64,000 nt of DNA, from positions 116,312,001-116,376,000 of the forward strand of contig NC_135885.1 of NCBI RefSeq assembly GCF_964194155.1, read 5' to 3'. Shown piece by piece: positions 6,698 to 59,300 of the stretch (position 1 is its first letter; every line of letters begins with the position of its first letter). The position numbers and the translations under genes were made by a program. The stretch comes from Cetorhinus maximus (lineage: Eukaryota). The notes below the pieces were generated by a model. That model ran no database searches. It saw nothing but the letters and a program-made list of their open reading frames with translations, and was not told where the DNA came from.

Positions 6698-6889
6698 GTG
6701 GTAGAGGCAGAAACTCTCATCACATTTGAAAAAGAAACATGAGGATATATGCACTTGAGGTGCCCTAACCTACAGGGCTCTGGGCAAGCGCTGGAAGGTG
6801 GGATCAGACTACGAAAATGTTTTTCGGCCAGTATGGATACGATGGGCCAAATGGCTTTCTGCTGTGCTATAATCCTTCTATTTTCCTAT

Positions 6890-7068: not shown

Positions 7069-7069
7069 C

Positions 7070-7345: not shown

Positions 7346-8114
7346 AAGGCATGACTTCCTTCCAGATGGAGGCAAAAATCTTGGTCTTAGCCAATTAACA
7401 ACCAGCCGAGCATTATATAACACCTGACAGGAAACAGGCAATAAGAAATATTTGAAGGAATCCAGAGTTACAGTCAGAGGTCCTGTGGTATGTTAACAGT
7501 GATGTTGGTAGGCTGAATTCAGCTTGGAGCATCGACGAACTGTTGTGAGTTCAGAGGCAGGTGTGATGAGTGAATTCCAGAACCTATATGAGGGTAAAGT
7601 ATCAGAAGAGGCATTGATGTGGTATTTTCATGGGAATGAGGAGTTGTACAGAATCAGTTCCAGGATCAGAAAGTGGACGGAGATATTAAAGGATGCCGTA
7701 AAATGCAGAAGCAGCAGTAGTTGGTTCAATTGGCTCAGGCAAGTGATTTTCTGGCCAGGAACAGACTGAAGCTGAACATTCAGTATAACCAGTGGCCAGT
7801 CACAGAGATTTAAATCTCTCAATCTCAAATGTGATGGGGGAAGGGCTGTAAACTGATCGACGATACTTTAAATATTGCAAAAAGCAGCAGATCAGATACA
7901 GGAGTTGGACCTTATGGTAAGCCAGTACTCCGGAGCCCCTGTTGTGTGAAGGTTACAGTGACCCTTGTTACACCTGCATTATATGCCCATGAAGCTATGA
8001 AGCAAATGGACATTTTTACTCCTAAAAGGCAGCATGGAGTATGGACAATTTACCTTGCCAGGATGTACTCCAGGAGATTTTAAAGACACAGGAACAGACA
8101 TGTCTGGATGTATA

Positions 8115-8274
8115 AAAGCAAAATACTGTGGATGCTGGAAATCTGAAACAAAAACAAAAATACCTGGAAAAACTCAGCAGGTCTGACAGCATCTGCGGAG
8201 AGGAATACAGGTGATGTTTTGAGTCCGTATGACTCTTCATCAGAACTAAGGAAATAGAGAAATTGAGGTGAAAT
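8115..8274 (-). mobile_element. 5'-truncated Penelope-like 3' tail with hammerhead motif
   Basis: Exact 15-bp TSD ATGTCTGGATGTATA at 8100-8114 and 8275-8289. Same tail sequence as 6157, 30905, 42048 and 55241. Confidence 0.9.
8210..8247 (-). ncRNA. Minimal type I hammerhead ribozyme, decayed
   Basis: Sense: AGTT CTGATGA A GAGTC ATACG GACTC AAAAC ATC ACC. CUGAUGA and stem II intact; GAAAC mutated to AAAAC. Confidence 0.7.
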
Positions 8275-9054
8275 ATGTCTGGATGTATATCTGGGGAGTT
8301 ACTTAAAATGTAAATGATCTTCCCAGGTGTTGATTGACTACCCCTCTCCATTTCAATTGAGGAGATTTAAATAACATTGGCTGTTAGAATTGCAGGCACC
8401 ATGAAGATGGAAATACAAATAAAGATATTCAGAAGCTATTCATAACTGGACTGTTGATAGGATATCAAATATCCCCCATTGTGTGATAAATTGCTTAACC
8501 TTCATACCAATTGTGTGAACAATAGAAACATTGATACAATGATTAAATGGCAGAAACTGGCTTAAAAAAAACCCTATTAATTGACACCTTGAAACAGCAG
8601 CAAGCAGTCCGGGACAAACAACGGTGAGAGAAGAGATCTCGTGCAGAAAAGAAAGAACCCTGTCAAGAAATTTATTACAGGCAGAGTGTGGTTAATTCTT
8701 TTTATCTGCAAGATATATCTTCACTACAGGAGCTCGTCTACAACTTCAAGTGGGGAAAATTCAGGAACCTGCTGTTGCAATAATAAGCCATTGTGAGTTC
8801 ATCAACAGAAACCTCCAACCACTATCTTTTCTTCAGTGAACTGCAACATTCAGACCGACAACATTTCCAACTACCATCTTGTTGGATCAGTGTAATGGTG
8901 AATTTTGAACTCTTTAAAAAAAAAAATCAGTGCATGTTACCCTTTTCTGTCATTACCTTTTTTTCTGTGTGTCTGTCTTGCATGAATGAAGGAGTGAGTG
9001 CTGCTGTGATTCAGTTTTTGGGTTTTATGAAATACCCAAAAATGGAATCACAGC

Positions 9055-9440
9055 CTTTATGTAACACCCTCAACTTCTATGGAACAGGCTTATTCCAGAT
9101 GGCAGATGTTGACTTCAGGAAAGCCAGTCAATTTTCTGTTCATGTAACCATTAGGCAGGTGTCACATCTCCTTTTGCAAAAAGATGGTTATACATGACCT
9201 TCCAATAGAGGTTGCTGACCTTGAAGAGAAGGCTTTTGGATTTGGTCTCATTACAGAATTTTCACAGTTTAAATATGTAATTGACTGCATACAAATTGCC
9301 CTGCACATGTTTCCTTCAAATCCAGCTATATTTAAAAACAGGGAGAGGTTTCATTCCCTGAGTGTGCAGTAGTTGCATTTGTGATCCCAGGTAGCAGATA
9401 ACAAAGGCTTTGGCCTAGTTTTCTAGGACTAGAAATGATG
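9055..9440 (+). pseudogene. Ancient Harbinger transposase remnant
   Basis: TLNFYGTGLFQ and KYVIDCIQIAL..PSNPAIFKNRERFHSLSVQ match HARBI1-type GVIDCTHIA / NRKGFHSLNVQ motifs. Confidence 0.75.
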
Positions 9441-9649
9441 CTTCTTACTGCATCTGTTCTTTGTATCTGTTTTTCAGATAAAAGGCACATACGATTGAGA
9501 GTAGACTGATGGATTAGATTTTGTCCTGCTTTTAGTGGACAAGCCACACTTGGGCAATTTTCCATATTGTTAAAACTTGATATCTGTTGTGAACAAATAC
9601 TGAAGTCTATAAAGGAATTAAGTGTATTTATCAATGATTAAGGCAATAA

Positions 9650-10150
9650 CACAAAACCAATATGGATTTATTGGAACTCTTTTGAAGATGTAACAGAATT
9701 GGTTAACCATTCTAATGTAATGGATAGTAGATCCAATTTCCACAAGGATGCTTCAGAAAAGACTTATAAAACAGATGATAGGATTAATGGATGATGAATT
9801 GCTTAGACATTAGGGAGAAAAAAGCCAAAGTTCTTCTTTAAGCAAATATCACTTTTTTCATGAGTACTTCTTTGCTAAAGTTAGCATAGATAAGAATTTT
9901 TGTCTCCAAAGAGCAGTAATCAATGGCATTCTAACTGGAGGGTTGTGGCCAGTATAGACAATGCATTTATAAATCATTTTGATAAGGATATTGAACATCC
10001 ATAGCTGCAGAACTTGCCAAATTGCACTAACAGAATGCTCAAAAAAGTTAAAATGCCAACAGCTGTACCAACTGAGTAGCTGGGAGAATATTTAGCGGGT
10101 AATAATTAATTGTGGGAAACCTAAGATAATGCACATTGTATCAACTGCAA
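9650..10150 (+). mobile_element. Highly decayed CR1 RT remnant
   Basis: ttattggaactcttttgaagatgtaaca (LLE.FEDVT) followed by aatttccacaagg (DFQKAFD-like). Confidence 0.5.
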
Positions 10151-11389
10151 CAAATATCATCAAAGGAGGAGGAATATGCTTTCTAAACATGGAGGATGGG
10201 GACAAAAGAGAGATAATTACCTTGATTTTTCAGTTTAGTCGCAAGGAAGAACTGTTGCCACTCATGTGATCTCCACTGCTTGTAACCCATAGCCTTTTAC
10301 TGTTGTGCTGTTGAGGGGGGCCTCATTTAATATTCAGGGTAGGTTTTAGTGGAATTCCCACTCTTGACTAATTTACTGCCTCTGGAAAGAAAGGAAATAC
10401 AGTTTAGCTGCATCATTTACAAGGTTTAAATTAAAGAACCAAAGACACTTAAATTGTGGAAAGAGATAATCCAGAAAACAGCTTGCAATGGCAGAAGGAA
10501 GAATAGTGGTAAAAACCCTCAGGGTATTGTGATGAGTCATAAATGTGTTATTGACAGAGAATGGAGGATTATCCCTTTGGCTGCATGATTGGTAGCTTCA
10601 TTAAAGGATAGTGCAGGCATTGTGTGTAATACGGCATAGATGATCAGTGTCACATGAATGGCAACACAGTGGCCAAGGTGAATCAAATCAAATATGTTAG
10701 TTATTTATTAATTGTGTGTTTAATTATATATGGATGATGGGCATTAACTTGGATTTATTTATGCTCCTATGAATAGGAACAGACTGAAACTTTGGTGTTT
10801 GGGTTAGAGGGTGTGTGTTTATAATTTGTACCTCTGCAAGCAAAAGCTAATAAAGATATATGAAAATTAGGATCCAATTGGGTTGGCTTGGGTTCATGGA
10901 ATAGAACAAAGTCTATTAATGCATCTCTTGAGAAATTGTTAGAAGCATACGGCATTGACTCCCTTACATGTCCTAGCAGCATAATTTAATATTTATAATT
11001 GAACTCATACACTACAAACATTCATAATAATGGAAATATCATAACTCAATGACAGCTGTGCTCTTGAAGCATAAACCATAAAAGCATATCATTTCAGACA
11101 TACAAAGGTCTGATTGTCCAGGTCCTGAATCTAAGCACCAAAAATCAGAGATGCAATTTTAGTCGTTTTTATTCTCACACAGAGTCTCCTCTTCCTTCTC
11201 AAAGCATATGAGTATTATAACAATGTTCAAGAAATTCCTAATTCTCTTGCTGCCAGTGAAATAGCAGCTGTCAGCAAGACAGTTGCAGGGAAGGACTGGG
11301 GAAATACAATAATTTTATTGTTAAAAAATCACCAAACACCAGCAGGAAGGAATACACCAAAGATATTGCAGATGGTAATGTTAAAGCCC

Positions 11390-12460
11390 ACTGAATAAAA
11401 GGGAGGGGCAGTAGCAGCATGGATACAAAGTTGGCTGAATGACAGGAAAAAGACGTTTTTTTCGGACTGGGGGAAAGTACTAAGTCGGGTTTTCCAGGGG
11501 TTAGTATGAGGACTATTGCTTTTCTTGATCTCTATTAATGATCTTGTCTTGTGAGTGCAGGGCACAAATTTCAAAATTTGCAGATGGCACAAAACTCAGA
11601 AGTAACGTGAACTGCGAGAAGAATAGTGATAGGCTTCAAGAGGTCATAGACTTTCTGGTGGAATAAGCAAACACATGGTAGGTGAAATTTAATGCAGCGA
11701 AGTGTGAAAAGATTCATTTTGAAAGGAAGAGTGAGAAAAGACCATATCAAATAAAGGATGCAATTCTAAAGGGGGCGCTGGAGCAGAGGGGCCTGGGGAT
11801 ATATGGGTACAAATTGTTGAAGATGGCAGAACAGGTTGAGAAAGCAGTTAATAAGACCTATGAACTTTTGAGCTTTATCATTAAAGGCATAGAGTACAAA
11901 AGGAAGGAAATTATGGTGAACCTTTATAAAACACTGGTTTGGCCTCAACTGGAGTATTGTCTCCAATTTGGGTTTAGGTGGGATATAAAGGCATTAGACA
12001 GGGTGTAGAAAAGATTTATGGGAATAGAACCAGAGCAAGGGACTTCAGTTATGTGCATAGATTGGAGAAGCTGAGAGAAAAGGATGTTGGATGAGACTTG
12101 AAAGAAGTGTTCAAAATCTTAAGGATTTTGGAAACAGTGATAGGGGAGGAACTGTTTCTCCTGGCAGAAGGGTCAAAAACCAAAGGACACCGATTTAAGG
12201 TGATTGGCAAAAGAACTAGAGGTGACATGAAGAAAAATGTTTTTTACGCAGCAAGTGGTTAGGATCTGACATGCACCGAGTGTCAATATGGTGGAGGCAA
12301 ATTCAATCATGACTTTCAGAAGGGAATTGGATAATTATCTGAATAGAAAAAGAAGTTGCATGGTTATGAGGAAAGGCAGGGGAGTAGGACTATCTGAGTT
12401 ACTCTTGCAGACAGCCAACATGGACATGACGGGCCAAATGACCTCCTTCTCTGCTGTAAC
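11390..12460 (+). mobile_element. CR1 LINE 3' portion
   Basis: ORF 11682-12008 MKFNAAKCEKIHF..LYKTLVWPQLEYCLQF; decayed FADDTKL at 11578; CR1 3'UTR at 12420-12460. Confidence 0.9.
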
Positions 12461-18930: not shown

Positions 18931-19877
18931 ATATATTTGGGATATTAGCCAATCCCCAAACCATGTCTAAACAGCTACCACACAATAAAACAGATAAGGT
19001 TCCCCTCGTTCTCACTGTCCACCCCACTGGCATCCATATTCAATATATCATCCTCTGCCGTTTCCACCACAACCAGTTTGATGGCACCACCAAACACATC
19101 TTCCCCTCCCCTCCCTTTCAACATTCCACAGGGACTGTTGCCTCCATGATACCCTGCTCCACTCCTTAGTCACCTCCAACACCCATCCCTTTCCTATAGC
19201 TCCTCTTTATACAAGTGCAGGAGATGCAACACCTGCCCTTTTCCTTCCCTCCCCCTTCTCACCATTTAAGTTTCCAAACACACTTTCCAGCTGAAACAGC
19301 GATTTACTTGTACTCCTTTCAATACTGTATTTACTACTCACAATGTGGTCTCCTCTACACCTCAGGGACCAAATACAGACTTGGTGACCACTTTATGGAA
19401 CACCTTCTTTCAGTGGCAAGCACAGCCCTGAGTTTCCTGTAGCTTGTCAGTCCAATTCTATATCTTACTCCCACTCTGACCTTTCTGTCCTTGGCCTGCT
19501 ACAGTGTTCCAATGAAACTCAACTCACCTTTAGACTTTATCGCCTTCAGAACTCAGCATCAAGTTCAACAATTTGACATCATAAACTCTGCCCCCATTTT
19601 GTTTTACATTTTTTCTGGTTCGATTTTTTTTCTCTCATCTTTTTGGATTCCTTTACCTTGCATTTGATGGCTACGATACTACTATTCACACCTCATCCCA
19701 ACACATCTTTTGTATCTTTATTTCTCCCATTACCCTTCCTTTGGCTTTTGTATAATGATATCTTTTGGCCATTTAATCTGTCCTTCACTCCACCCTATCA
19801 CAGGCCTTTCCTTTTGTTACGTTTCTGCCCTCCAACCTTTCACTTGCTCAAAATCTACAGCACTTCGGATTTTCCTT

Positions 19878-25934: not shown

Positions 25935-26665
25935 ATATCACAGATGACTGTATCGGTGCTGTTTCCTGCTCTTGCCCAGAACTGGAAAACGTCTTCAACT
26001 TTGCTTCAAATTTCCATCACCCTTCCCTCACCTTCACTTGGCCCATATCTCTGACACTTCCCTTCCCTTCCTCAACTAATTTGTCTCCATTTCTGGGGAC
26101 TGTCTACTGATATTCATTATAAGCTCACCAGCTCTTGCAGTTGCCTGGACTACACTTGCTCACATTCTGCTTCTTGTAAGGACTCCATTCCATTCTCCGA
26201 TTTTTTCTGTCTACACTGCATCTGTTCTGATGATCTCCCTTTTTCCTCAGCCCTTCAGAGTGGTTGGCAGGGCTCTCAACTGCATCCAATCCATTTCTGT
26301 ACTTCTGCTCTCACTCATTCCCCTCCCACCCAGAACTGTGATAGACTCTCCATTGTCCTCATTTTACCCCCCCCACCAGCCTCCACATTCGAAGGATTAT
26401 CCTCCACCATTTCTGCCACCTCCAGCAAGTTGCCACCACCAAAAAATACCTTCCCCCTCCCCTGTCAGCATTCCAAAGGGACCGTTCCCTCTGTGAGATC
26501 CTGGTCCACTTCTCAATCACCCCAACACATCATCACCTACCCATGGCACCTTCCCATGCAATCACAGGAGGTGTAACATTTGCCCTTTTACCTCCTCTCT
26601 CTTCACCATCCAAGGCCCCAAACATTCCTCCCAGGCGAAGCAGTGATTTACTTGTACTTCTTTCT
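25935..26665 (+). mobile_element. Penelope-like RT/linker fragment
   Basis: ITDDCIGAVSCSCPELENVFNFASNFH (YIDD motif); SHSASCKDSIP; TFPCNHRRCNICPF linker motif. Confidence 0.8.
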
Positions 26666-30087: not shown

Positions 30088-30331
30088 AAGGCATTTGTAT
30101 TGTGACTGGACTAGTAATCCAGAGATGCAGTGTAATGCTCTGGGGACCTGGGTTCTAATCCCACCATGGAATTAAAAGACTAATTGTAATGACTCACTGG
30201 GGATAGTGCACTGTAATAGTGGGGCTTGATATTACAGTGCACTATCCCCAGTGAGTCATTACAATTAGTCTTTTAATTCCATGGTAGGATTAGAACCCAG
30301 GTCCCCAGAGCATTACACTGCATCTCTGGAT
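30088..30331. repeat. tRNA-derived SINE head duplicated as a near-perfect 102-bp-arm palindrome
   Basis: Arms 30117-30218 and 30230-30331 with one mismatch seen and an 11-nt loop; contains B-box-like GGGTTCTAATCCC. Confidence 0.85.
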
Positions 30332-30334
30332 ATA

Positions 30335-33300
30335 AACTTCAAAGTGTTGAAGAGACAACAACAATGCTAGAGTTTTTTTTCTACTGTAGAGTACATCCAC
30401 CGATATTGATTTAGTTTGTTGGAAAAGTACCCCACTGGCTTCTCTATCCCTAATTTATCATCTTGTAATTGAGCTGCACCTACCCCCAAGTCACTGGCAT
30501 CAACCGCCATTTTAAAAGGTTTAGTAAAGTCAGGGGTGGTCAACACAGGTTCATTTATTAAGATTGCCTTCAGCTTTTCAAAGGCTGCTTGGCATTCAGC
30601 CGACCATACCACTTATGCCTGTTTTCTTAACAAATTGGTCAGAGGTACAGCTATGGTGCTGAAATTAGGCACAAAGTTCCTATAAAACCCACACATTCCC
30701 CAAAACCTCATAATTTCTCATTTGATTTTAGGAATGGGCAATTCTATTTGGGTGTTCACTTTTGATGTTTTCGGCAACGCCTGCCGTTGTCCGACAATGT
30801 GACCTAGGTAAGTTACTCTTGCTTTTGCAAATTCGCTTTAGGCCAGATGTATGACCAAGCCCACTAACTGCAATTGCTTAAATAGGTCCTGTAAATGCTT
30901 AGATAGAAGCAAAATACTGCAGATGCTGGAAATCTGAAACAAAAACAAAAAATGCTAAAAAAACTCAGCAGGTCTGACAGCATCTGTGGAGAGAAAGACA
31001 GAGTTAATGTTTCCAGTCTGTATGACTCTTCAAAAGAGTAACACGGACTCGAAACGTTAACTCTGTCTTTCTCTCCACAGATGCTGTCAGACCTGCTGAG
31101 TTTTTCCTGCATTTTTCATTTTTGTCCTCTAGATGCTTTACATGCTCTTCCCATGTGTTACTATATATGACAACAGCATCTTAATAAACCACCCAGTTAG
31201 GTACTTCAGCTACGATTCAATTCAAATGTCTCTGGAATGTAGCTGGGGTGTTTTTAAACCCAAATGACATGACGAGACATTGATATAATCCACTTGGTGT
31301 AACAAAGGCGGATATTTCTTTAGCCTTTGATGTTAATGGCACTTGCCAATACGCCTTCAATAGGTCAATTTTAGAAAGAAATGACGCACTGCCCACCCTA
31401 TCGATGCAATCCTCTAGCCGAGGAATCGGATACAAATCTGTCCTCGTTACTATATTCACTTTCTGGTAGTCTATACAAAATCTAGTGGATCCATCCGGCT
31501 TAGGAGCCAACATGACCGGTGAGCTCTAGCTGCTTTGACTAGGCTTGATCAATTTATTTTCCAGCATATATTTGATCTCTGTTTCTAAAAGAGCTCGCTT
31601 TTCTGGGCTCAACCGATGCAGATGTTTTATCGGCACTGCGTCTCCTACGTCCACATCATGTTTAGTTAATGTAGTACATCCAGGTGTATCCCTACAATTT
31701 TCCTTATACTTCCTAAGTAACCTTATTAAATCTTCTTGTGGTCCTTCCTCTAAATGTGAGAACACAGTGTCAAACAGTCCCATTATTTTCGTATTGGCTA
31801 GTTGAATTGTAGGTGGTTCACTTTGTGTGCTGTCTACTTCTCCTTCTAACTGACTTCTACTGTTTTTGGCATCCTCCACTACTCCTACCATCATCTCCTC
31901 TGCAATAATACTGCTTCAACATGTTTATGCGACATAACCGTTTCTTCTTCCTATGTTCAGGAGTATCTATCAGGTAAGGCACTGCACTAACTCTCCTAAC
32001 TATCTTCTAGGGGCCACTGAATTTCGCTTTCAGGGGTTCACCTGCAAAGATAACAATACCAACACTTTGTCCCCTGTTTGGGAGGTTCTAGTTGTAGCAT
32101 GTTTGTCTGCCCATTCTTTCATTTTGGCTTGGGAAATTTTTGAATGCTCTCCTGCTACTTTACATGCCCCTGTGAGACTTTCTAGAAACATGGACACATA
32201 ATCCAACATGGAGGATTCTTCTTTCGGCTTCAGGAACTTTCCTTTAATCAAGTTTAATGGATCTCTTTTTCTCATGATCGCAGATCAATTCAAATGGACT
32301 AAATCCAGTAGATTCACTAGGAGAATCTCTGGTATCGAACAGTAAGAAATCTAATCATTTGCCCCAATCCTTTGGGTATTCATGGCAATAGGTCATAATC
32401 ATGGTTTTGAGAGTCTGATCGAATCTCTCCAAAGCTCCCTGTGTCTGTGGGTGATAAGCGGTAGACTTTAGTTGTTTGATACCCAAATTGCTGATTATAT
32501 GCTGGAAAATCTTAGGCATGAAGTTCAAACCTTGATAAGATTGTATTTCAATTGGTAGGCCATAAGGAATGAAAAACTGAGTTAACTTTTCTACTACCAC
32601 CTTCCTGTAATTGCCCTTAAAGGAATAACTTCTGGAAATCGTGTGATCATATCCATGATTGTAAGGATATATTGATGTCCTGCTTTTGTTTTGGGTAATG
32701 GCCCTACACAATCTACTAATACCCGACTGAATGATTCTTCAAAAAACTGGTATAGGTATTAAAGGTGCTGGTTTGATTACATGTTAGAGTTTACTTACTG
32801 CCTGACATGTATGACATCCTTACAAAATGGTGCTGGTTTGATTGCATGTTGGGGTTTAGCTACTCCCTGACATGTATGACATGCCTTGCAAAATTGCACT
32901 ATGAGCATATTAAGTCTTGGCCAGGTAAAATGCCTGTTTATCGATGCTTGGGTTTTCTGTATTCCTACATGTCCCGCCATTGGGATTTCATGTGCTACTT
33001 GCAATATCTCCTTAAAATATTTGGGCAGTATCACTGTCTGATGAACAACCATCCATTCCTCATCCACAGGTCTGATGGGGGTGATGGGAGAAAGGGTGTC
33101 TCCACTTCCTCATCAGAACTCTGTTTTTAAGCTCTCCGGAACTCCTTCAGCCTCAGCTTCAGTGTGAGCTGACTGTGCTAACTTGTTTAACTCTGGATCT
33201 GCTTTCTGAGCCTCAATTAAGGAAGACGTGCCAAACACTTCCTTTGAATTATCCTCATCCTTAAAGGAAGTTTTGGCTACTCTAACACCTGCTCATGGTA

Positions 33301-35251: not shown

Positions 35252-35326
35252 TTAAAACAAAAGCAGCAAGTGCTGGAAATACTTAGCAGATCTGGCAGCG
35301 GCTGTGGAGAGAGGAACAGAGTTAAT
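35252..35326 (-). mobile_element. Penelope-like tail, cut by the large Harbinger (continues at 45062-45090)
   Basis: gctggaaatacttagcagatctggcagc..gagaggaacagagttaat | agc attttgagtc..atgact matches the tail consensus gagttaacgtttcgagtc..atgactc. Confidence 0.7.
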
Positions 35327-35593
35327 GGACAGAATTTTCTGTTTTGTAGACTAAGTACAGTGGTGGGCAGGAAAATCGGTGTGATTCCCATTGGGCAGCA
35401 GGGTGCATGACCTTCCACCTTTCAGCTCATTAATTATGCATCAAATCACATGGGTCTGCAGTGATTTATCTGCTCTGCTGTTACCTCATGGGGTAAAATA
35501 TGTCCTGGTGCATATGTAAACAGCACCGGCATACACATGTATTCACTGCAGTCCAGGTGTGTTGGGCACTTCTTCAGAGCAGTAGCCAAAAGA

Positions 35594-41620: not shown

Positions 41621-42153
41621 TTGATTTGATCCCTCTTCGTAAGCATCTGGATCTTACTGGCACTAGTTCCTCAGGTCGATGGTGTTCCTTGAGCTATGCC
41701 AAATGGCGACAGGCCCTTCTTCTCCTCACTCGCATCAAAGCTATCAAGAAGGCAGCACTGCCTGCAGCTTGCATTCTCCACTCCTCCTTGTACCTCTGAA
41801 GAATAGATTTGAGACATCATTGCACCTTCCCCTTGAATGCTCTATCACTATCTCCAATCTAGGAAGCCAATGTCCTTCCCTCAGTCTATGGCATCCCCAG
41901 GCCACCTCTGCAGCTGAAGCACATCCTGAAGGTCCACAGGTGGCTGAGCATCCCTCTCTGACATGACTGTGCCTTAACAAAGAGGCTCTTGATCAGGGTG
42001 CATACACTTATGTGCGGTAACCCTCAGTCAGCCTATTTTTAACTTACACAAATATAAAAACAAAAAACTACTGCGGATGCTGGAAATCCAAAACAAAAAC
42101 AGAATTACCTGGAAAAACTCAACAGGTCTGGCAGCATCGGCGGAGAAGAAAAG

Positions 42154-42192
42154 AGTTGACGTTTCAAGTCCTCATGACCCTTCAACAGAACT
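42154..42192 (-). ncRNA. Minimal hammerhead ribozyme variant
   Basis: Sense AGTT CTGTTGA A GGGTC ATGAG GACTT GAAAC GTC AACT: stem I AGTT/AACT, stem II, palindromic ACGT, GUC triplet. Confidence 0.75.
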
Positions 42193-43384
42193 GAGCAATA
42201 TCGGAAGAAGGGTGAAATATAAGCTGGTTTAAGGTGGGGGGGGAGAGAAGTTGGGGGGGAGGTGGGGGTGGTTGTAGGGACAAGCAAGCAGAGAAAGGAG
42301 CAGATAATCAAAAGATGTTACAGATAAAGGAACAAAGAGGTGTTGAAGGTGGTGATATTATCTAAATGAATGTGCTAATTAAGAATGGATGGCAGGACAC
42401 TCAAGGTACAGCTCTAGTGGGGGTGGGGTGGAAAGACTGACAGGGCATTACAGGTATAGATTTAAAAATAATGGAAATAGGTGGGAAAAGAAAAATCTAT
42501 ATAAATTATTGGAAAAAACAAAAGGGAGGGGGAAGAAACGGAAAGGGGGTGGGGATGGAGGACGGAGTTCAAGATCTAAAGTTGTTGAATTCAATATTCA
42601 GTCCGGAAGGCTGTAAAGTGCTTAGTCGGAAGATGAGGTGCTGTTCCTCCAGTTTGTGTTGGGCTTCACTGGAACATTGCAGCAAGCCAAGGACAGACAT
42701 ATGTGGGCAAGAGAGCAGGGTGGAGTATTAAAATGGCAAGCGACAGGGAGGTTTGGGTCTTTCTTGCGGACAGACTGCAGGTGTTCTGCAAAGCGGTCGC
42801 CCAGTTTACGTTTGGTCTCTCCAATGCAGAAGACCTGCATTGGGAGCAACGGGCCACCCTGCTCTCTTGCCCACATATGTCTGTCCTTGGCTTGCTGCAG
42901 TGTTCCAGTGAAGCCCAACGCAAACTGGAGGAACAGCACCTCGTCTTCTGACTAGGCACTTTACAGCCTTCCAGACTGAATATTGAATTCAACAACTTTA
43001 GATCTTGAACTCCCCCCTCCATCCCCACCCCCTTTCCGTTTCTTCCCCCTCCCTTTTGTTTTTTCCAATAATTTATATAGATTTTTCTTTTCCCACCTAT
43101 TTCCATTATTTTTAAATCTATACCTGTAATGCCCTGTCAGTCATTCCACCCCACCCCCACTAGAGCTGTACCTTGAGTGTCCTGCCATCCATTCTTAATT
43201 AGCACATTCTCTTAGATAATATCACCACCTTCAACACCTCTTTGTTCCTTTGTCTATAACATCTCTTGATTATCTGCCCCTATCACTGCTTGCTTGTCTC
43301 TACAACCACCCCCCCTCCAACTTCTTTCCCCCCACCACCCCACCTTAAACCAGCTTATATTTCACCCTTCTCCTGATATTGCTC

Positions 43385-43423
43385 AATTCTGTTGAAGGGT
43401 CATGAGGACTCGAAATGTCAACT
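43385..43423 (+). ncRNA. Minimal hammerhead ribozyme variant (second arm)
   Basis: AATT CTGTTGA A GGGTC ATGAG GACTC GAAAT GTC AACT. Confidence 0.7.
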
Positions 43424-45174
43424 CTTTTCTTCTCCGCCGATGCTGCCAGACCTGCTGAGTTTTTCCAGGTAATTCTGTTTTTATTTTTAACTTACCTTCA
43501 TTAACCTAGACACTAACTTAGCCTTGTACTAATGTCATGACTGTGAGCATTGTGCCCTGTAAGCCATGACCATTGAAATGAGAGTATCGAGGTTTGTAGT
43601 GTGCATGTAGCTTCAGTCCAGCAGCTGTGGCACTTGATTGTTTGATCCTCCTTCCCATTTTACATATCTCTGGCAGGGACAGGTGCCCAATCAGATCTCA
43701 TCGAATGTAGCACCAAATCTTAATGGATTGCTGCATGAATGCAAACCATGAGTGAATGTGCTATAGTCCTTCAATGGGCATTTGATCCACAAAAACAGTA
43801 CTCAACTGAGACTTGTAATTCATGTCTTGAGCACATAATTATTATGTTGCCCCTTCAATTGTCCCAAAATTGTATTCGGGAACTCCTCCCAATTGCCTTG
43901 AGATCCCTCACATATCATTTTTTTCACATATCTTTTTCCAGCTGCGGCATTGCTGGTTAAGGGCGAAGATGGTGCTGTTATATTTTGTGAACGCCACCAA
44001 TACCTTCCCATCTCCCCCGGTCACCACAACTTCCTCCCATTCTCCTCCACTGTCACCATTTCCTAATTCCCATCCCTCCTGTAACTATTCAGCCTCCCCC
44101 GTTACCCTTGACCCCATCGTTGTGCACATGGATATCCCTGTGCACCCCCCATTCCCTTCAACGTTGATGTCCCCATGCTATTTGTTGATCTCATCCCTCC
44201 CTTTTTTGAGGCCGCCTACACTCTCGCTTTCAGATACCCATCCCATGAGACCTACTGAATACAGATGCCTCCCATCAATGTTACTATACCCCCTGTTTGC
44301 CAAACCACACAACCAAATGCCTTGTTTCACTGACCACACCCTGTGCATGACTGTCACTGCCCAGCAAGGCCCTCCCCTACTCAGGGCCAGGATCAAGACA
44401 TGCGTGCCGTGCAGAGCCCTCTAACATGTCCTGCACAGCCCCAGGTCAATCTGTTATAGCTGCCCCCGACAACGTGGTCTCAGTCCCAGGACAGTCCCTG
44501 ACTCCTCTTTGAACAGTCTTATAAATCTTGCCCCTGGACAGTCTTTCACTACTCCACCCCTCCTCACCAGTCATGCCTCTTCCCCCCTTCCCTCTCATGT
44601 TCCACTGGCCCAACGCCAGTCATGCCTCCATCTTCCCCCTTTCCCTCTGGTGTTGTCTGACAGGCACCAGCCTTGATGCAGAATCGGAGAAGCACTGAAA
44701 TATCGCAGCACCACTGTTAAAGGTAGACAAAAGTAGCGTCTGCATGCCTCAAAGCTGTCGATGAAGTAAGGCTCACCAGGCGCACGCCACTTAAATAGAG
44801 TCATGAAACAGACCGTTCAAATTATCTGCTGGCTGGGCACTTAAATTGGAGGGGAATGGGAGCACTCATGAGATGCAAGTGAATGCAAATGTGGTTCCTG
44901 ACATAGGTCAGCAGGAAAGTCTTTAATCCACCATCAAAGTCGGGAGAACAAATTCCAAACTGATTTCCTGAAGGCAGGAAACTGACTTTTGCAAACGTTG
45001 CAAAGTTTCTGCCCCCACCAGCCACGATTCTGGCCACTACCAAGAGCAGAAAATTCCACTCAGCATTTTGAGTCAAATATGACTTTTCTTTAATTCTTTT
45101 TTAAATCTCATTTTAATGTTCATTTTTACAGATTAGTGTGACCATCCTTCCTTCTTGCTTCTAGTGGGAACATG

Positions 45175-46875
45175 TTTAAGAACAAAAGAGCATAAAACCC
45201 TAAGAAATAAGAGCAGGAGTAGAACATATAGCCTCTTTGAGCCTGCTGCACGTGTATATATTTATGATCATAGCTAATCTTTTGCCTCAAATCCATTTTC
45301 CACATTCCTTTATTCCCTGAGAGAGTAACAATTTATCTATCCCAGCCTTGAATGTATTCCACAATGGAGTATCCTCAAACATCTGGGGCAGAGAATTCCA
45401 AAGATTCACAACCCTCTGAATGAGAAAAATTCTCCTAATCTCAGTGATAAACAATCGATCCCTTAACGATGCTCTAGATTCTCCAGCCAAGTGAAATGAC
45501 CTCTGTGTCTATCCTGTCAAGGACCTTCAGAATCTTATGTTTCAATGAGATCATCTCTTATTCTTCTAAACTTTGGAGAGTATTGATCCAATTAACCACC
45601 CCCTCATCCCAGGAACCAAAAGAGTAAACCTTCACTGTACTGCCTCCACGCCAAGACCAAAATTCCACACATTACTCCAGGTATGGCTGCGTGCAGTTGG
45701 AGCAGGACTTTCTTCTTTTTCTACTCAGTCCCTTGGCAATAAAGACCAACATGCCATTTGCTTTCCTAGCTACATGCTGTACCTGCTTGCTAACTTTCTG
45801 TCTCTTTGAACATCAACATTTAAGTTTCACACCTTTTACAAAAAAATGTTTTTTCTTATTCTTATTACAAATAAAGGAAAAACCAGTTCAAAATTTTCAA
45901 ATCCCAGTAAAAATCGGTATTACTGATACCAGTAATACAGGAGTTCCATTTTAAGGTATACAGGACCGATTTTGGGGAGTGAATAGCTTCACCCTTCCTC
46001 ATATTATACTCTATCTGCTACCTTGTTTCCCATTCGCTCAATCTATCCATATCTCTTTGCAGCCTCATTGTATCTTTCTCACAGCTTACATTCCCACCTA
46101 GTTTTGTACCATCAGAAAACTTGGGGCAGAATTTTTAGGTGGGCAGTTGGGCGCGATCGGCTGGCCCGGGGAACGGACCACCAACTGCGATCGGCCCCCG
46201 AACGCGATTTCAAGCTGGCTGGCCAATTAATGGCCAGCCAGCATGAAACGTGCACTGAGAAGCTCAGCACTGCCGGGGTGGGGGCAGGAAGAGGGCGGGC
46301 GCTGACGTGCGCGCGGGCGCAAGCGAGCACCAACAGAGAGCTGCTTCAGGGTGCTGATGACCTGAAAAATCCTCAAATAAAGTTTTGAAAAGCAGAAAAA
46401 ATGTCCAAGCATCCCAAACAGGCATCTGAAAATGCTGTCCACCAATTTTAATTTTTAATTTTATTTCATCATGGAAACCTCATCCCGCCCTTGGATGAAG
46501 TTTCATGAAAAATGTAAAGTCTGCCTGGCCGATTTGCCCATCCACCAACCGTAAGGTTGGATGGGCGACATAAAATTAAGGACAATTGCACTGTTAATGA
46601 CCTGAATTGGCCTCTTAATTGTCGGTGGGCGCGCTTCCAACTTCTGCACGACCCGCCAACCGTAATATTGCGCAAGCGCGGGATGACGTCGGGACACTTG
46701 CCTGATGTCATGTTACGCGGTTTCACTCCGGATTGGGTCGGGCGTGCGCCCACCTGCCCGAGCTAATAATTCTGCCCTTGGCTACATTACTCTCAGTCTC
46801 TTTGTCTAAGTCATTGCAAATAGTTGAAGTGAGCACTGTTCTTTGCTGCACTCTACCAGTTAAAGCCTGCTAATG
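45175..46875 (-). mobile_element. CR1 LINE 3' portion interrupted by a MITE
   Basis: ORF 45287-45490 QRVVNLWNSLPQ; 3' tail aagaaataagagcaggagtag at about 45200; KFSDGTKLG split at 46121. Confidence 0.8.
46124..46777. mobile_element. Young Harbinger-type MITE (654 bp)
   Basis: TIRs GGGCAGAATTTTTAG / CTAATAATTCTGCCC; exact TSD TTG (46121-23, 46778-80); CpG-rich. Confidence 0.9.
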
Positions 46876-46884
46876 TGCAAATGT

Positions 46885-47035
46885 GTCTGTTGCGGTTCAG
46901 TGGGTGGCATTCATGCCTCTGCATCACAAGGTTGTGAGTTTGAGTGCCATTCCAGAAACTTGAGCACAGAATCTATGCACACACTTCCATTGCTGTGCTG
47001 GGGTAATGCTGCACTGTCAAAGGTGCCATCTTTCA
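46885..47035 (+). mobile_element. tRNA-derived SINE 5' part (SacSINE1/DeuSINE-like)
   Basis: ggttcagtgggtggcattcatgcctctgcatcacaaggttgtgagtttgagt.. followed by gctgcactgtcaaaggtgccatcttt. Confidence 0.6.
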
Positions 47036-47720
47036 AGGCTGAGTTGGACAGATTTTTGATCTACAAGGGAATCAGGGGTTATGAGGGACAGGCAGGAAAA
47101 TAGATTTAAGGCCACAATCAGATCAATCATGATCTTATTAAATGGTAGATCAGGCTCGAGAGACTGAATGGCCTACTCCTGCTCCTATTTCTTATGATCT
47201 CACGATATTATAAATGTGTCCTGTTCGTTAACCATTCCTTTATCAATTAATATATTAGCCACAACTCCATGGGACCTTATCTTACATATTAATCTTTTGT
47301 GTGGCATCTTATCAAATGCTTTTGGATTTCCAATTATATTACATCTACTGGCTCTCCTTTATCTACCCTATTACCCTAGTTGTGTTCTCAAAAATCTCCA
47401 ATGAATTTGTCAATCATGATTTCCCTTTTGAAAAACCAAGATTACTCTATCTGATCATATTATGATTTTCTAAGTGGATTGTTAAGGCCTCCTTAATAAT
47501 AGATTCCAGCATTTTCTTGATGACAAATGGAAGTCTGTAACTGTCTGTTTTCCCTCGTTCTCCTTTCTTTAATAGCACTGTTACATTAGTTTTGAACAGG
47601 TTTGGATATTTCTCATTGTGAACTGCTCAATTTGTCAATTCTTTATTCCAGTCATGTGGATTAATTCCCTTTTTCATCGAACTGAAATTGGATTTTTCTC
47701 CCCCAGTCAAATATTTTTAT
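47035..47720. mobile_element. CR1 3' tail (+, 47035-47200) and old CR1 RT fragment (-, 47215-47720)
   Basis: gaatggcctactcctgctcctatt tail; reverse complement KAFDKMPHKRL. Confidence 0.7.
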
Positions 47721-47740
47721 CTTCAAACATTCCCCTTTAG

Positions 47741-48919
47741 TAGTACAGAACTTGGGTATTGCTGAAAAAAGAGACAATTTTTGGTTGAAACTTTGCCACT
47801 TGCACTCATCAGGACAGTTTGCAAGAAAATACCAGCGTAAGGGGAAACAATATATTTATACTGTATGTGAAGAGGGTGCTGATTAGGTAGCAAATGGACC
47901 CTGATTAGTAGAGGCATTGCCATGGAGAATGCTCTAGTTGATGATGACTGATAGTTAACTGCCAAGCATTGTTGGAATTTGAACCAGGCAACTTGACACT
48001 GATTGGTCAAGACATTGCCCTGGGGAATGAACCAGCCAATAGCTGTCACTTATTTAGTTTAGCTGAAACAGGTGCAATGTGTGTACATGTTCTTTCTATT
48101 TGCAAAGAACACAAGGCCCTGTGTATTAATAAATGTAGCTTCCAGTACACGCAAATGTGCCGCACTACAAACACAACTGACAATCTTAAATTGGTTATCA
48201 GCGTAATTCTTAGCACACTGAGGATTATTTGGCAAATGTCCATTCTCAGAGTCACATCTATTTTTTGACACTGTGTTTTGAGTTTTGCAAGCACCGGGCT
48301 GATTGAGTATGGTCTATGCCTTGCCTGTTGTGAACAGCAGCTGAGACATGTTGTTTGATACAAACCATCAGTTCTTGGGACATATGGCCTACATACCCAG
48401 CATCACACTGGCACTGGCATTCATACACCACATTATTCATTTGTGTGATAGGCAGGATGTCTTTTTAGCTTGACAGCAGCAATCTGTTAGTGGTGAATAC
48501 CACTCGTGTTGCTACTGCATAGTAGCAGCGTGAAACAGCAAACTTTACCTGTTGCTCAAATGTTTGAGATACCTTGCCCTCCTGGGATAAGTTGAGGTAG
48601 ACCGGGCAATTTTCAGGGCCGAATGGTCTTAGTGATGGTCTTAGGCCTGTTCATCAGTTTGCGTGATATACAGCGCACAATGATCTGATCAGAGCAGCCA
48701 CTATCCTGCAGGGTGTCTTTGATGTGCCCTATTTCAGCATCAAGCTTGCATGATGAGCAAATGGCCCAGACCCCATTTATGAGGTTCAGTCCACTTGTCA
48801 ACCAATCAGCACTCTCTTCACATACAGTATAAATATGTTGTTTCCTCAGACACTGGTATTTTCTTGTGAATTGGCCTGATGAGTGCAACACAAAAAGACT
48901 CTTCTTTCAGCAATACTCA
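47741..48919 (-). mobile_element. Second Penelope-like family: GIY-YIG end plus inverted copy of its 3' tail
   Basis: NVVYECQCQCDAGYVGH..CIKQHV and LRVLEATFI; 48787-48919 is an inverted copy of about 47750-47900; hammerhead-like CTGATGAGTGCAA in both (47783-47816 minus, 48872-48900 plus); imperfect TSD ATTCCCCTT / ATTTCCCTT. Confidence 0.82.
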
Positions 48920-49182
48920 TTTCCCTTAAACTTACCAATGTTTATATCAAACCTAATTATGTTATGGTGACTGTTTCTTAAATGTTCTCCTACCCCTAGA
49001 TTGACTAATTATCCTGTTCATTTCTTACAATGATATCCATCACTGCCTCCTTCATTATTAGCTTAAAAGCACATTGATACAGAAAGCAATCCTCAACACA
49101 ATATAGAAACCCTTACCCCTTCATTGCTACTTGCATTAAAACCAATATTATTAATTGTTGTTCCACATTTTTCTCTAAGCAA

Positions 49183-49810
49183 GGGAGTTTCCCCAATGCC
49201 CTGGCCAACATTTATCCCTTAACCCAATATCAGTAAAACATGGATAGATTGGAGAAGCTAGGGCCTGGTTTCCTTGGCGAAGAGACGATTAAGAGAGATT
49301 TGATAGAGGTGTTCAAATTGTGAGGGGTCTGGACGGAGTTGATAGGGAGCAACTGTTCCCATTGGCAGAAAGATCAAGAACCAAAGGACACCAATTCATG
49401 GTGATCAGCAAAAGAACCAAAGAGGACATGAGGAAAAACTTTTTTATGCAGTGAGTGGTTCGGATCTGGAATGCACTGCCTGAGAGCGTGGTGGAGGCAG
49501 ATCCAATTATGGCTTTCAAAAAAGAATTGGATAATTATCTGAAGTGAAAAAAAATTCCAGGGCTATGGGCAAAAGGCAGGAGATTGGGATTGGGTGAGTT
49601 GTTTCTTCAGAGAGAGAGAAAACAAGTACAACGGGCTGAATGGCTGCCTTTTAGTGCTGTAACTATTCAATGAAAACATATTTTCTAATTATGATTATAC
49701 TGATACTTGGGGGATCCTGCTATGTGTAAATTGACTGCTGTTTGTCCTATATTACAACAGACTGCACTTCAAAAATACATAATTACCAGTAAAGCACTTT
49801 GGGAAAGGTG
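49183..49810 (+). mobile_element. DeuSINE (SacSINE1/AmnSINE1-type) Deu domain and tail, split by a CR1 3' fragment (49241-49672)
   Basis: cctggccaacatttatccct.aacc and tgctatgtgtaaattgactgctg..attacaacag..cacttcaaaa..taaagcactttggg; AAAACA duplicated around the CR1 piece. Confidence 0.75.
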
Positions 49811-50207
49811 CTTAATGAAAACAAGTGTTTTTCTTTATTTGTCTGTGCATCTCTTGTTCTATTTTGATTCCAGTAATTAGTGGGCTAAAGTATATTACTA
49901 CAAGAGCAAAAGTTCTATCCTTATTATTGAACTCTCTCCCTAGAGACTGGTAACTTTTAAAAAGAAATTCAAACTTGCAGTTAATAGCTGAAAGAATAAC
50001 ATGACAAGATTCCACATTTTAAGACTTTTACTGTAACACCAGACTAAAAATACTTTTGACTGAACAGTATTTTTGTAGGCATTCTAAACATGAAACCACA
50101 GAACAGAACTTGTGATAGAACCAAAAAAATGCACTATCAGGTATACATTACACGACATTTTAAGTAGACATTAATTTCTCCCAGAACGAACCCAAAACAA
50201 TTTTTAT

Positions 50208-50233
50208 CTCTCTCTCTCTCTCTCTCTCTCTCT
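50208..50233. repeat. (CT)n microsatellite
   Basis: Direct observation. Confidence 0.95.
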
Positions 50234-50759
50234 AATATTCTGTGATGTTTTGGGAAAGACTGTAACCAGATCTTTACAATGTCTTCCTCTGCAACCTGCC
50301 CCATTGCAGCGTGAATCACTTGGGCCTTGTATCCAGTTAGAAATGCTGATTAGGTATTCTTTAAACCCCAACTTATCCTATCCTGAAATCAAATGGATAG
50401 TTCAAGGTATACCCTTTTACAATCTGACAATTTTAATGCTTCCCTGGGACATGGCAATCCATAGTCTGTCTCTTGACCCCACAGCTGCCTTTGCCAATGT
50501 CTGCAAGTGTGAATACCTTATATCTTCATCCCAGTAGAATCTAGGCCTTCCTTTAACCTTTAACCTTCTTCACCCAGACCTGTTATCAGGCAGACTTCAG
50601 TGCAGGCCACATGATTCCCTTCCTTTTACCCTAAATTTAAAAAACGGTCACAAACCATAATAATCTTATGAACCTCATAACTGTAACACTTGGCACAGAC
50701 TTTTGATTGCATCAATTCCATATTTACAATCAGTTCATATCAATTCCTCACCCATTCTT

Positions 50760-50930
50760 TTAGACAGTTGTTAGGCAAAGGAATCAAAGATTATCAGGGG
50801 TATATGGGAATGTGGAATTCAAAACATAAACAGATCAGATGTGATCTCATTGAATGGCAGAGCAGGCTCGAGGGGCCAAATGGCCTACTTCTGCTCTTAT
50901 TTCTTATGTTCGTATGTATGTTCGTAGTAT
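50760..50930 (+). mobile_element. CR1 3' tail
   Basis: gagcaggctcgaggggccaaatggcctacttctgctcttatttcttatgttcgtatg. Confidence 0.75.
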
Positions 50931-55240: not shown

Positions 55241-56059
55241 AAAAACAGAATTACCTGGAAAAACTCAGCAGGTCTGGCAGCATCGGTGGAGAAGAAATCA
55301 GTTAACGTTTCGAGTCCCCACGACCCTTCGGCAGAACTGAGTATAGTTAGGAGAGAGGTGAAATATAAGCTGGTCTAAGGTGGGGGGGCGGGGGGAGAGA
55401 GAAGTTGAGGGTGGGGTGATTGTGGGGATAAGTAAGAGGTGATAGGAGCAGATAATCAAAAGATGTCACAGACAAAAGGATCAAAGAGGTGTTGAAGGTG
55501 GTGATATTATCTAAGAAAAGTGCTAATTAAGAATGGAAGGCAGAATACTCAAGGTACAGCTCTAGTGGGGGTGGGGTGGAAAGACTAACAAAGTTTTAGT
55601 TTTAGATTTAAAAATAATGGAAATAGGTGGGAAAAGAAGAATCTATATAAATTATTGAAAAAAAGGGGGGAGGGGGGAGAAACGGGGTGGGGATGGGGGG
55701 AGGGGGAGTTTAAGATCTAAAGTTGTTGAATTCAATATTCAGCCCGGAAGGCTGTAAAGTGCCTAGTCGGAAGATGAGGTGCTGTTCCTCCAGCTTGCGT
55801 TGGGCTTCACTGGAACAATGCAGCAAGCCAAGGACAGACATGTGGGCAAGAGAACAGGGTGGAGTGTTAAAATGGCAAGCGATAGGGAGGTTTGGGTCTT
55901 TCTTGTGGACAGACCGCAGGTGTTCTGCAAAGCGGTCGCCCAGTTTGCGTTTGTAGAGGAGACCACATTGGGAGCAACGAATGCAACTTTAACTTTCCAG
56001 GTAATTCTGTTTTTGTTTTGGATTTCCAGCATCCGCAGTAGCTTTTAGCTTTTCGTTTT
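55241..56059 (-). mobile_element. Penelope-like 3' fragment with short inverted tail at its 5' junction
   Basis: Same family as 42048-43481; IRCSQCGLL..KRKLGDRFAEHLRSVHKKDPNLPIACHFN; inverted tail 55994-56059; exact 13-bp TSD TACATATCAATAT (55228-55240, 56060-56072). Confidence 0.92.
55300..55338 (-). ncRNA. Minimal hammerhead ribozyme variant
   Basis: Sense AGTT CTGCCGA A GGGTC GTGGG GACTC GAAAC GTT AACT. Confidence 0.7.
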
Positions 56060-56369: not shown

Positions 56370-59300
56370 TCTCTGGGTGACCAAGGATGGGAATGAAACA
56401 TCCAGGGGTATTCAATATTTAGGAAGGACAGACAAATAGGGAAAGGAGATGGGGTAGCATTGTTAGTAAGGAAGGAAATCAATGTAATAGTGAGGAAGGA
56501 TATTGGCTCAGAAAATCATGATGTGGAATCTGTTTGGGTGGAGTTGCTGGGGGTTGTCTATAGGCCCCCAAACAGTAATGGAGTTGTAAGGGAAGGCATT
56601 AAGCAGGAAATTAGAGACGTATGCAGTAAGGGTACAACTGTAATCATGGGTGACTTTAATCTACATGTAGATTGGACAACCAAACTAGCAATAATGCTGT
56701 GGAGGAGAATTTCCTTGAGAGTGTATGTGATGGTTTTTTAGACTAACACGTTTAGGAACCAACTAGAGAGCAGGCTATCCTAGACTAGGTATTGTGCAAT
56801 GAGAAAGGATTAATTAACAGTCTTGTTGTGCGGGGTCCCTTGGGGAAGAGTGACAATAAAATGATAGAACTGTTCATTAGGATGGAGAGTGAAGAAATTG
56901 AATCCAAAACTAGGGTCCTGAATCTAAATAAAGGGAACTACGAGGGTATGAGACTCGAGTTGGCAATGATGGATTGGGGAACCTTACTACAAGGCTTGAC
57001 AATAGATAGGCAATGGCTAATATTTGAGGAACATATGTATGAATTACAACAATTATTCATTCCTGCCTAACGCAAAAATAAAACAGGAAAGGTGGCTCAA
57101 CCATGGCTTGCAAAATAAATTAGGGATACTATTAGATCCAAAGAGGAGACATATACAATTGTCACAAAAAGGAGCAGTTTAGAATTCAGCAAAAGTGGAC
57201 AGAAAGATTGATCAAGAAAATGGAGTATGAGAGTAAACTTGCAAGGAACATAAAAACTGACTGTAAAAGCTTCTATAAATATGTGAAGAGAAAAAAATTA
57301 GCAAAGACAAACATAGGTCCCTTAAAGTCAGAAAGGGCGGAAATTATAATGGGGAACAGAGAAATGGCAGAAGAATTTAACACATTTTGGTTCTGTCTTT
57401 ACAAAAGAGGACACAAATAATTTCCTAGAAATGTTAGGGAACCAAGTGTCTAGTGAAAGGGAGGAATTGAAGAAAACCAGTATTGGTAAAAAAATGGCGC
57501 TAGAGAAATTAATGGGATTAAAGGCTGAGAAATCCCCAGGGCCTGATAATCTACATCCCAGAGTACTAAAGGAAGTGACCCTGGAAATATTGGATGCATT
57601 GGCGGTCATGTTCCAAAATTCTATCGACTCTGGAGCAGTTCCTACAGATTGGAGGGTGGCAAATGTAACCCCACTATTTAAAAAACGAGGGAGAGAAAAA
57701 ACAGAGGCCAGGATTTTCCCCTTGGCGATTTGAGGGCGGGGCCCGCTTGCTGAGGGGAAAATGGCGCGGGATGATGTTGGGAGGAATCCCCGACGTCATC
57801 CCGGGCCATTTAAATCTTAAGGAAGGCGGGCGGACAGCGAAATCAGCTGTTCGCCCTCCGGCCTGTCAATGGCCAATTAAGGCCATTGACAGGTTCATTA
57901 AGATAGTTAAATGCCCTGCCCAACCAACCTTAAGGCTGGCGGGCAGGCCAGGAACCTCAGTGGGCTCCAGATTATTAATGAAACTTCATCCACTGGCGAG
58001 ATGAAGTTTCATAGTTTCATTACCATTTTGTAAAACTTTAATAAATTTTAAGTGTTTACTATTAACATGTCCCATCTCATGTGACATTGTCACATGAGGG
58101 GGACATGATAATAATTTTAAAATGTCTCTATTTTTTGACTTTACTTACCTTTCACTAAACTCCCTGAGACAGGACTTTGTCTCAGAGAGCAGTGCGCTCT
58201 TTCGCGTGCATGTGCGACAGATGGGGAACCCCTCCACCCCCCCGCACAGGAAGTGCATTGCGCTTCCTGTTGGGCAGGCCGCTGGGCGGGCCTAAATTGG
58301 CCTGCCCACTCAAAATGGCGGCGGGCCCTGTTTTGGCAGGAGGGTTCGGCTGCCCGCCCGCCGCCGAGCCGGTGGGGCCCACCTGCCAGCCAAGGGCTAA
58401 ATTCTGCCCAGAGAATTACAGACCAGTTAGCCTAACGTCAGTAGTCGGGAAAATGCTAGAGTCTATTATAAAAGAGAACAGATAAAAGATAAACAGAACA
58501 CTTGGAAAACATTAACGGGATTAGACAATGTCAACATGGGTTTATGAAAAGGAAATTGTGCTTAACTAAACTACTGGAGATTTTTGAGGATGTAACTAGT
58601 AGAATAGATAAGGGAGAACCAGTGGATGTGGTGTATTTGGATTTCAAGAAGGCTTTTGATAAGGTCCCACATAAGATGCTAGTGGGCAAAATTAAAGCAC
58701 ATGGGATTAGGGGTAATATACTGGCATGGATTGAGAATTGGTTGATAGACCAGAAACAGAGAGTGGGAATAACTGGGTCTTTTTCCGGGTAGCAGGTGGT
58801 AACTAGTGGTGTATTGCAAGTATCAGTGCTTGGGCCCCAGCTATTCACGATATACATAAATGACTTGAATGATTAAACCAAATGCAATATTTCCAAGTTT
58901 GCTGACGACACAAAACTGGGCGGGGTTGTGAGTTGTGAGGAGGATGCAAGGAAGCTTCAGGGTGATTTAGGCAAGTCATGTGTGTGGGCGAACACATGGC
59001 AGATGCAGTATAACGTGGATAAATGTGAAGTTATATGCTTCAGTGTGAAAAACAGAAAGGCAGAGTATTATTTAAATGGTGATATATTGGGAAACGAAAA
59101 TAAGGGATCTGGATGTCCTTGCTCACCAGTCAATGAAAGTAAATAAGAAGGTGCAGTAAGCAATTAGGAAGGTGAATGGTATGTTGGCCTTCATTGCAAA
59201 AGGATTTGAGTTCAGAAGTAGGGATGTCTTACTTCAGTTATACGGGACCTTAGTGAGACCACACCTGGAGTATTGTGTGCAGTTTTGGTTTCCCTAACAA

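Follow-up and report, generated by a model that had tools for sequence, protein, structure and literature searches.

How does a single insertion come to hold two copies of the same retroelement, joined head to head, with both 3' ends facing outward? This question is raised by the insert at 42048-43481 of the window, a 64,000-nt stretch of the Cetorhinus maximus genome (NC_135885.1, positions 116,312,001 to 116,376,000 of the forward strand). The insert is 1434 nt long and is composed of two 5'-truncated copies of an EN+ Penelope-like element (PLE), flanked by an exact 14-bp target-site duplication (TSD; left copy 42034-42047, right copy 43482-43495). The left arm (42048-42851, minus strand) comprises the end of the ORF, the 3' region and the end of the pLTR, with a long tail outermost, and the right arm (42854-43481, plus strand) is a shorter 5'-truncated copy with a short tail. 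The element is therefore read from opposite strands in the two arms, minus on the left and plus on the right, and both of its 3' ends point outward. Beyond the CTGGAAAAAC landmark, the left arm extends 61 nt and the right arm 13 nt; the extension exclusive to the left arm (42048-42089, minus strand) points to a distal start site, and the short tail of the right arm to a proximal one. Alignment of 42090-42723 with 42854-43487 (640 columns, 93.9% identity), together with the match between the TSD copies, confirmed the 1.43-kb insert, the ~630-bp inverted arms and the exact 14-bp TSD described in the initial annotation, as well as its view that both outer ends are the 3' end of the element and start at different tail positions.

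The 130-nt centre consists of the unmirrored inner continuation of the left arm (42724-42851, minus strand) and a 2-nt filler without microhomology at the head-to-head junction (42852-42853). This spacer had been described as GIY-YIG-coding; it does contain the second half of the GIY-YIG core, but only that half and frameshifted, and none of its reading frames scored in a Pfam search. A minimal hammerhead-like motif with the core CUGUUGA, lacking A6, and ACGU at stem III is visible by eye in the pLTR at 42154-42192 (minus strand), and direct reading of the sequence also locates a second, decayed motif, in which ACGT has become ATGT, at 43385-43423 (plus strand); an Rfam scan of the window returned no match at the gathering score. 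Both arms carry a private 2-bp insertion present in 0/44 other contexts. The copy is defunct and of some age, its arms having diverged by 3.4% at non-CpG sites.

Judged by its sequence, the element is an EN+ PLE. A longer copy, L039, has a 581-aa open frame with RVT_1 (E 1.1e-6) and GIY-YIG (E 6e-4) matches, both just under the curated cut-offs, arranged as RT followed by a C-terminal GIY-YIG endonuclease in a single ORF. The window arms are 93-94% identical to the PLE family of this type. The L039 frame also contains a CxxC between the two halves of the GIY-YIG core and downstream histidines, as read by eye without a reference alignment, and a CX4CxxC in the RT-EN linker upstream of that core. 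A CxxC inside the EN core is a PLE feature and a CX2-5CxxC linker motif marks Neptune/Nematis (PMC8557442); the main PLE family looks Neptune/Nematis-type, belonging to one or other of these two clades. The optional 30-40 bp tail, the inverted truncated copy and the TSD, which are marks of EN+ PLEs, are all present. Among the fetched loci (longest, ~2.9 kb), no full-length copy was found; direct pLTRs or partial tandems would be expected around a full ORF. The exact 40-nt tail pattern gave 20,460 matches in the 3.99-Gb genome and its reversed control gave 0. Two-armed PLE palindromes can be taken for MITEs or fold-back elements; reading the family as a MITE or non-autonomous mini-element was rejected because the inner ends vary between copies.

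The insertion itself is supported by an empty site in a related organism. In a 514-nt contig (run X1, depth 6.79), bases 168-508 correspond to the left flank and bases 1-181 to the right one, the two matches being assigned to one record from equal length, depth and strand. It carries the 14-bp target once, indicating a true insertion with a true duplication. In a chance control of the TSD finder, at least 11 bp were returned for 3/300 shuffled flank pairs.

The same geometry had been reported at four further loci in the window and was recovered at each, but an exact TSD is found at only two of them. A short pair of a related, older PLE lineage at 6157-6321 has its long tail on the left, its short tail on the right and an exact 14-bp TSD, and a non-nested pair at 55241-56059 joins a long arm with the short tail to a ~65-nt arm with the long tail within an exact 13-bp TSD. 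The old short pair at 30905-31123 has only a degenerate TSD candidate (13/15 matching). The pair at 47740-48917, with a degenerate TSD (10/12) and a tail on the left arm only, had been assigned to an unrelated family; it does belong to a different, second PLE family, but not to an unrelated class of element, since it has a GIY-YIG-like stretch and a hammerhead-like core, with a palindrome at stem III. A Pfam search of seven second-family frames gave nothing meaningful.

The window also contains a PLE stub at 8115-8274 (single arm, long tail, exact 15-bp TSD) and older PLE fragments at 35254-35327, 18988-19526 and 25953-26660, which are 69-78% identical to the main PLE family. A near-perfect palindrome at 30117-30331 (102-nt arms, 99%, 11-nt loop) lacks a PLE tail, and a search around it found no TSD; its outer part presumably resembles a tRNA-derived SINE head, and it is probably a recent local inverted duplication that arose via another route. 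A small imperfect palindrome at 58052-58112 is flanked by 8-bp repeats, and other repeat families form additional, diverged inverted pairs at 45186-50916, 5062-6142 and 6329-11864.

The sample comprised the window plus 258 loci, with 30 second-family loci kept apart. Similarity searches and extensions supplied 120 loci biased to young copies (90 from searches and 31 from extensions, partly overlapping), and the others were 10-kb stretches chosen arbitrarily (49) and the loci, 88 in number, in which the first 100 tail-pattern matches on contig C1 lie. Deduplication by flanks left 89 head-to-head candidates, of which 77 with a TSD of at least 11 bp were kept and 12 dropped. Two classes of outer end emerged in this sample, long (45-67 nt from the landmark) and short (0-28 nt). 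The second PLE family shows the same two end classes with closer spacing. The TSD is 14 bp in 44/77 pairs and 13-15 bp in 62/77.

The two classes are combined almost without exception: 76/77 TSD-bounded pairs are long+short, one is short+short and none is long+long, as against 50% long+short under independent choice (P 1e-21). Three of the 12 candidates dropped for a TSD below 11 bp look same-class. The sole short+short pair (L255:485-722) has an exact 14-bp TSD. Single arms with a TSD occur in either class (22 short and 15 long, n = 37), indicating that both start sites prime in vivo; with both sites usable alone, roughly every second pair should be same-class if each arm chose its site independently. 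A TSD of at least 11 bp is retained by 41/44 pairs and 13/31 singles. In the positional sample, 65/102 pattern signatures (100 matches, two counted twice) lie in paired arms, suggesting that about half of the insertions are pairs. In 27/76 pairs the short-tail arm extends inward beyond its partner by more than 20 nt, so that neither arm contains the other, and in 13/76 it is the long-tail arm that extends further; in the remaining 36/76 the arms end within 20 nt of each other, and these pairs are nearly perfect palindromes. Beyond 60 nt, longer short-tail arms number 18 versus 9, an excess that is not significant (P 0.12).

The target is dyad-symmetric, with the same base preference on both strands. 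At exact 14-bp sites, a purine stands 3 nt left of the TSD in 40/41 and a pyrimidine 3 nt right of it in 40/41, against a background of ~50% for each; TSD-adjacent positions, which are biased by TSD calling, were ignored. A is found at -7 in 27/41 target sites and T at +7 in 20/41, which suggests a wider palindromic nuclease preference.

The arms of a pair are also closely related to each other. Subfamily sites are discordant within pairs at 41/555 positions (7%), compared with 33% after shuffling, and rare variants recur in both arms in 18/244 cases, compared with 0.3%. An 8-site haplotype is common to both arms in 26/29 informative pairs, where 22.4 mixed pairs (~7 shared) were expected. Five haplotypes overlap in arm divergence. 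Such sharing points to one source, not necessarily to one molecule, and two same-locus RNAs or conversion fit equally well. Mixed haplotypes are found in 3/29 pairs, clearly in L094 and more weakly in L267 and L091. The head-to-head pair L094:540-1645 has an exact 15-bp TSD and arms differing at 5/8 sites, with the mixing spanning the whole arm, and is the best candidate for a two-template insertion. From one RNA, mixed pairs would require template switching or later conversion.

Coupling between the inner ends of the two arms is seen in the 41 pairs of the positional sample (rho 0.71), and in 30 short pairs the median inner-end difference is 8 nt versus 25 nt when permuted. Because of a reference mismatch at position 142, inner ends placed by BLAST tie at 141, which somewhat inflates this coupling; refined inner ends still look coupled, the permutation figures referring to the BLAST-based ones. 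Equal synthesis length, with an offset of +38, was rejected as the cause, as near-equal pairs centre on 0. In both pairs and singles, 5' truncation points cluster over the hammerhead motif (reference 113-150) and at a G-run (185-216). Among the 45 scored junctions (8/53, in the G-run, being left unscored), 9 have microhomology of 1-4 nt, where the chance of at least 1 nt is 41%, 6 are blunt and 30 carry insertions. Of these insertions, 13 are of 1-4 bases and 17 of at least 5, and for 6/17 of the latter a template of 6 nt or more lies nearby, as a raw count. The insertions at L042, L059, L115, L072 and L242 and at L007, L024 and L236 contain an inner piece, inverted or otherwise rearranged, that has no second tail, or show further template jumps from arm to arm.

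These patterns are best accounted for by programmed twin priming, to which we give a probability of roughly 0.55 and in which both nicks prime at two fixed sites ~38 nt apart, usually on one RNA. One nuclease specificity, probably that of a protein dimer, would make both nicks, as suggested by the ~14-bp duplication and the same preference on both strands. The RNA has two U-rich places, and all arms start at one or the other; each nick would prime at one of these sites, each site being used once. The enzyme starting from the distal site would then follow and displace the cDNA begun at the proximal site, a step proposed because the overlap takes up most of the arm length and the two arms largely carry the same source variants. 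The two cDNA ends would be joined by end-joining, perhaps sometimes by snap-back, in keeping with junctions that are mostly small insertions or blunt. If one priming failed, a single arm of either tail class would be left, and the hammerhead would likely be a passenger in the priming step.

The use of one RNA with two once-used sites would explain the 76/77 rule as well as the variants common to both arms and the coupling of their inner ends, at the cost of a hypothetical strand displacement. Dual priming is the firm part, supported by the symmetric nicks, the two sites usable alone and the non-nested pairs. The proposal in the initial annotation that cDNAs are primed from both nicks and joined centrally thus gains support from non-nested arms, the dyad target and short-tail-only insertions, and from the in vitro activity of PAc described below. 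The fully specified scheme, in which a dimer of the enzyme cuts the target symmetrically with a 14-nt stagger, both ends are primed on one RNA and the trailing enzyme displaces the first cDNA, has in our judgement somewhat less than an even chance of being right. Against the one-RNA reading stand the 3/29 mixed pairs, the one short+short pair and the 36/76 palindromes that are compatible with fold-back. Later central deletion may have caused some of the non-nesting, and snap-back may join the near-perfect palindromes.

The involvement of two RNAs can be conceived in more than one form. Two RNAs acting independently fail on the 76/77 rule, and the arms mostly share a haplotype and even private variants. 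An asymmetric protein dimer with one RNA per subunit, one subunit using the distal and the other the proximal site, the RNAs usually coming from the same locus and the ribozyme having no role, is a tentative and rather unlikely alternative. It makes strand displacement unnecessary and, best of the readings, explains the 3/29 mixed pairs directly; the shared variants fit if one source dominates in a germ cell, and a dimer is predicted for PAc (PMC11167929). However, it needs an unexplained built-in asymmetry to give 76/77 whereas the target preference is symmetric, and the coupled inner ends follow from it less naturally. Genomes do not separate one molecule from one source.

More doubtful is self-priming or fold-back, in which the first arm, as antisense RNA or cDNA, would be the template for the second, whose tail would be lost during resolution, and later central deletions would produce the asymmetric copies. 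Fold-back on antisense RNA is the published interpretation (PMC3846280). The near-equal inner ends in 36/76 pairs, the small median difference in the 30 short pairs (8 versus 25 nt permuted) and the private variants common to both arms would agree with it, and it does not conflict with programmed twin priming if its role is to join two cDNAs that have already been primed. Fold-back alone predicts nested arms, yet 27/76 pairs are not nested, 18 of them by more than 60 nt. It also predicts many short+short pairs, and this version fails because short-tail priming is common (22/37 singles) yet short+short is nearly absent (1/77). Moreover, it cannot yield mixed haplotypes, the short ends are as ragged as the long ends (0-28 versus 45-67 nt), unlike a nuclease cut, and microhomology at only 9/45 scored junctions also argues against it. 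The counts therefore disfavour the antisense self-priming of PMC3846280.

The initial annotation had further suggested a ribozyme-paired intermediate, in which the two nicks are primed by two RNAs whose minimal hammerheads pair with each other at their ACGU palindromes. Minimal PLE hammerheads have been proposed to act as dimers, with low activity in vitro (PMC4209133). The palindrome is present at stem III in both PLE families of the window, the 3/29 mixed pairs exist, and 41/136 arms end at positions 113-150, within or just 5' of the motif, where they may mark an RNA start or a stall. A symmetric RNA dimer, however, predicts ~50% same-class pairs, in contrast to the 1/77 seen. The predicted cut, which by the hammerhead consensus rule we take to lie between 42158 and 42157, is passed by 125/136 arms, indicating that the templates were uncut or re-ligated there, and only 5/136 arms stop at it. 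At core position 6, 64 of the 83 arms counted have U, 19 have C and none has A, and an A6C hammerhead is reported to be low in activity (PMC3088659). In addition, hammerhead catalytic mutants leave PAc insertion in vitro unchanged, although pairing itself lay outside that test (PMC11167929), and Naiad PLEs without canonical hammerheads still form inverted units (PMC8557442). Co-folding of two RNA copies did not give the ACGU-paired form, a weak and uninformative result. The ribozyme-paired two-RNA idea is without support and is very improbable.

There is almost no chance that the insert is an assembly artefact or a product of two independent neighbouring insertions: among the matches listed, no contig of the same species label spans the site or its junctions, which proves nothing, but the arms differ by 6% and in length, a single TSD surrounds both, the relative carries the empty site, and the first 100 exact tail matches on contig C1 include 21 head-to-head neighbours (within 3.5 kb) against 1 tail-to-tail and 2 same-strand.

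The layout itself is already known. In Adineta vaga, Pen2a and a Pen2 derivative have an inverted pLTR next to them, a tail of 31 bp on one side only and a TSD, and head-to-head is the most frequent PLE arrangement, for which antisense self-priming was proposed (PMC3846280). The same inverted-unit scheme has been given for all PLE clades (PMC8557442), and opposite-strand hammerhead pairs 100-700 bp apart have been reported (PMC4209133). The units described here match the canonical EN+ PLE units in being head to head with a one-sided 30-40 bp tail and one TSD (PMC3846280, PMC8557442), and the TSD mode of 14 bp, versus 8-10 bp in the rotifer examples (PMC3846280), is no difference in kind. What is added here are the counts: the strict long+short pairing, the 14-bp mode, the dyad target and the shared haplotypes.

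The closest biochemical parallel is PAc, a Poseidon-clade PLE of Anolis carolinensis, in contrast to the main PLE family, which looks Neptune/Nematis-type. In TPRT in vitro, PAc cuts and extends both strands (PMC11167929). Like the main PLE family, it has two internal start sites that bound the tail downstream of the hammerhead, and its hammerhead cleavage is dispensable (PMC11167929). In the available text of that paper, the two sites are not tied to the two nicks and the inverted units are not explained, and PAc shows no start-site difference between strands in vitro, which argues against a site-per-nick reading (PMC11167929).

A second parallel is L1 twin priming, from which the initial annotation had set this mechanism apart. 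Since one of the two start sites here lies internal to the other, the process resembles L1 twin priming and is not different in kind. In L1, a single RNA serves both nicks, the second of them priming at an internal position, and the products overlap once the 3'-primed cDNA has been extended past that position (bioRxiv 10.1101/2024.08.27.596794). Set against this criterion of both nicks on one RNA, 26/29 PLE pairs have the same source, which in genomes does not prove a single molecule. Product lengths correlate in both systems (R 0.76 in L1, bioRxiv 10.1101/2024.08.27.596794; rho 0.71 in PLE pairs). The L1 second site is spurious and far inside, with overlaps in 17% and a median of 22 bp (bioRxiv 10.1101/2024.08.27.596794), whereas the PLE second site is fixed ~38 nt from the first and the overlap is near-complete over the arm; unlike the microcomplementarity of L1, PLE junctions mostly carry small insertions.

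In the literature searched, no statement of strict long+short pairing or of PLE twin priming was found, though earlier work (Arkhipova 2006; Evgen'ev and Arkhipova 2005) and the PMC11167929 supplements may bear on it; the available parts of PMC9977147 and bioRxiv 2026.07.22.740005 contain nothing on inverted units. The origin of the PLE inverted units and one-sided tails has been called unresolved (PMC8557442, PMC3846280).

In summary, this study deals with a known architecture and makes a modest mechanistic gain. The counts provide a sharp test for the PAc in vitro system, namely whether there is one start site per nick, and whether on the same RNA or not. With >20,000 exact tails and about half of the insertions two-armed, these palindromes matter for repeat annotation. 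If programmed twin priming is true, a single process would account for both the one-sided tail and the inverted pLTR of PLEs and would directly yield about half of all insertions.
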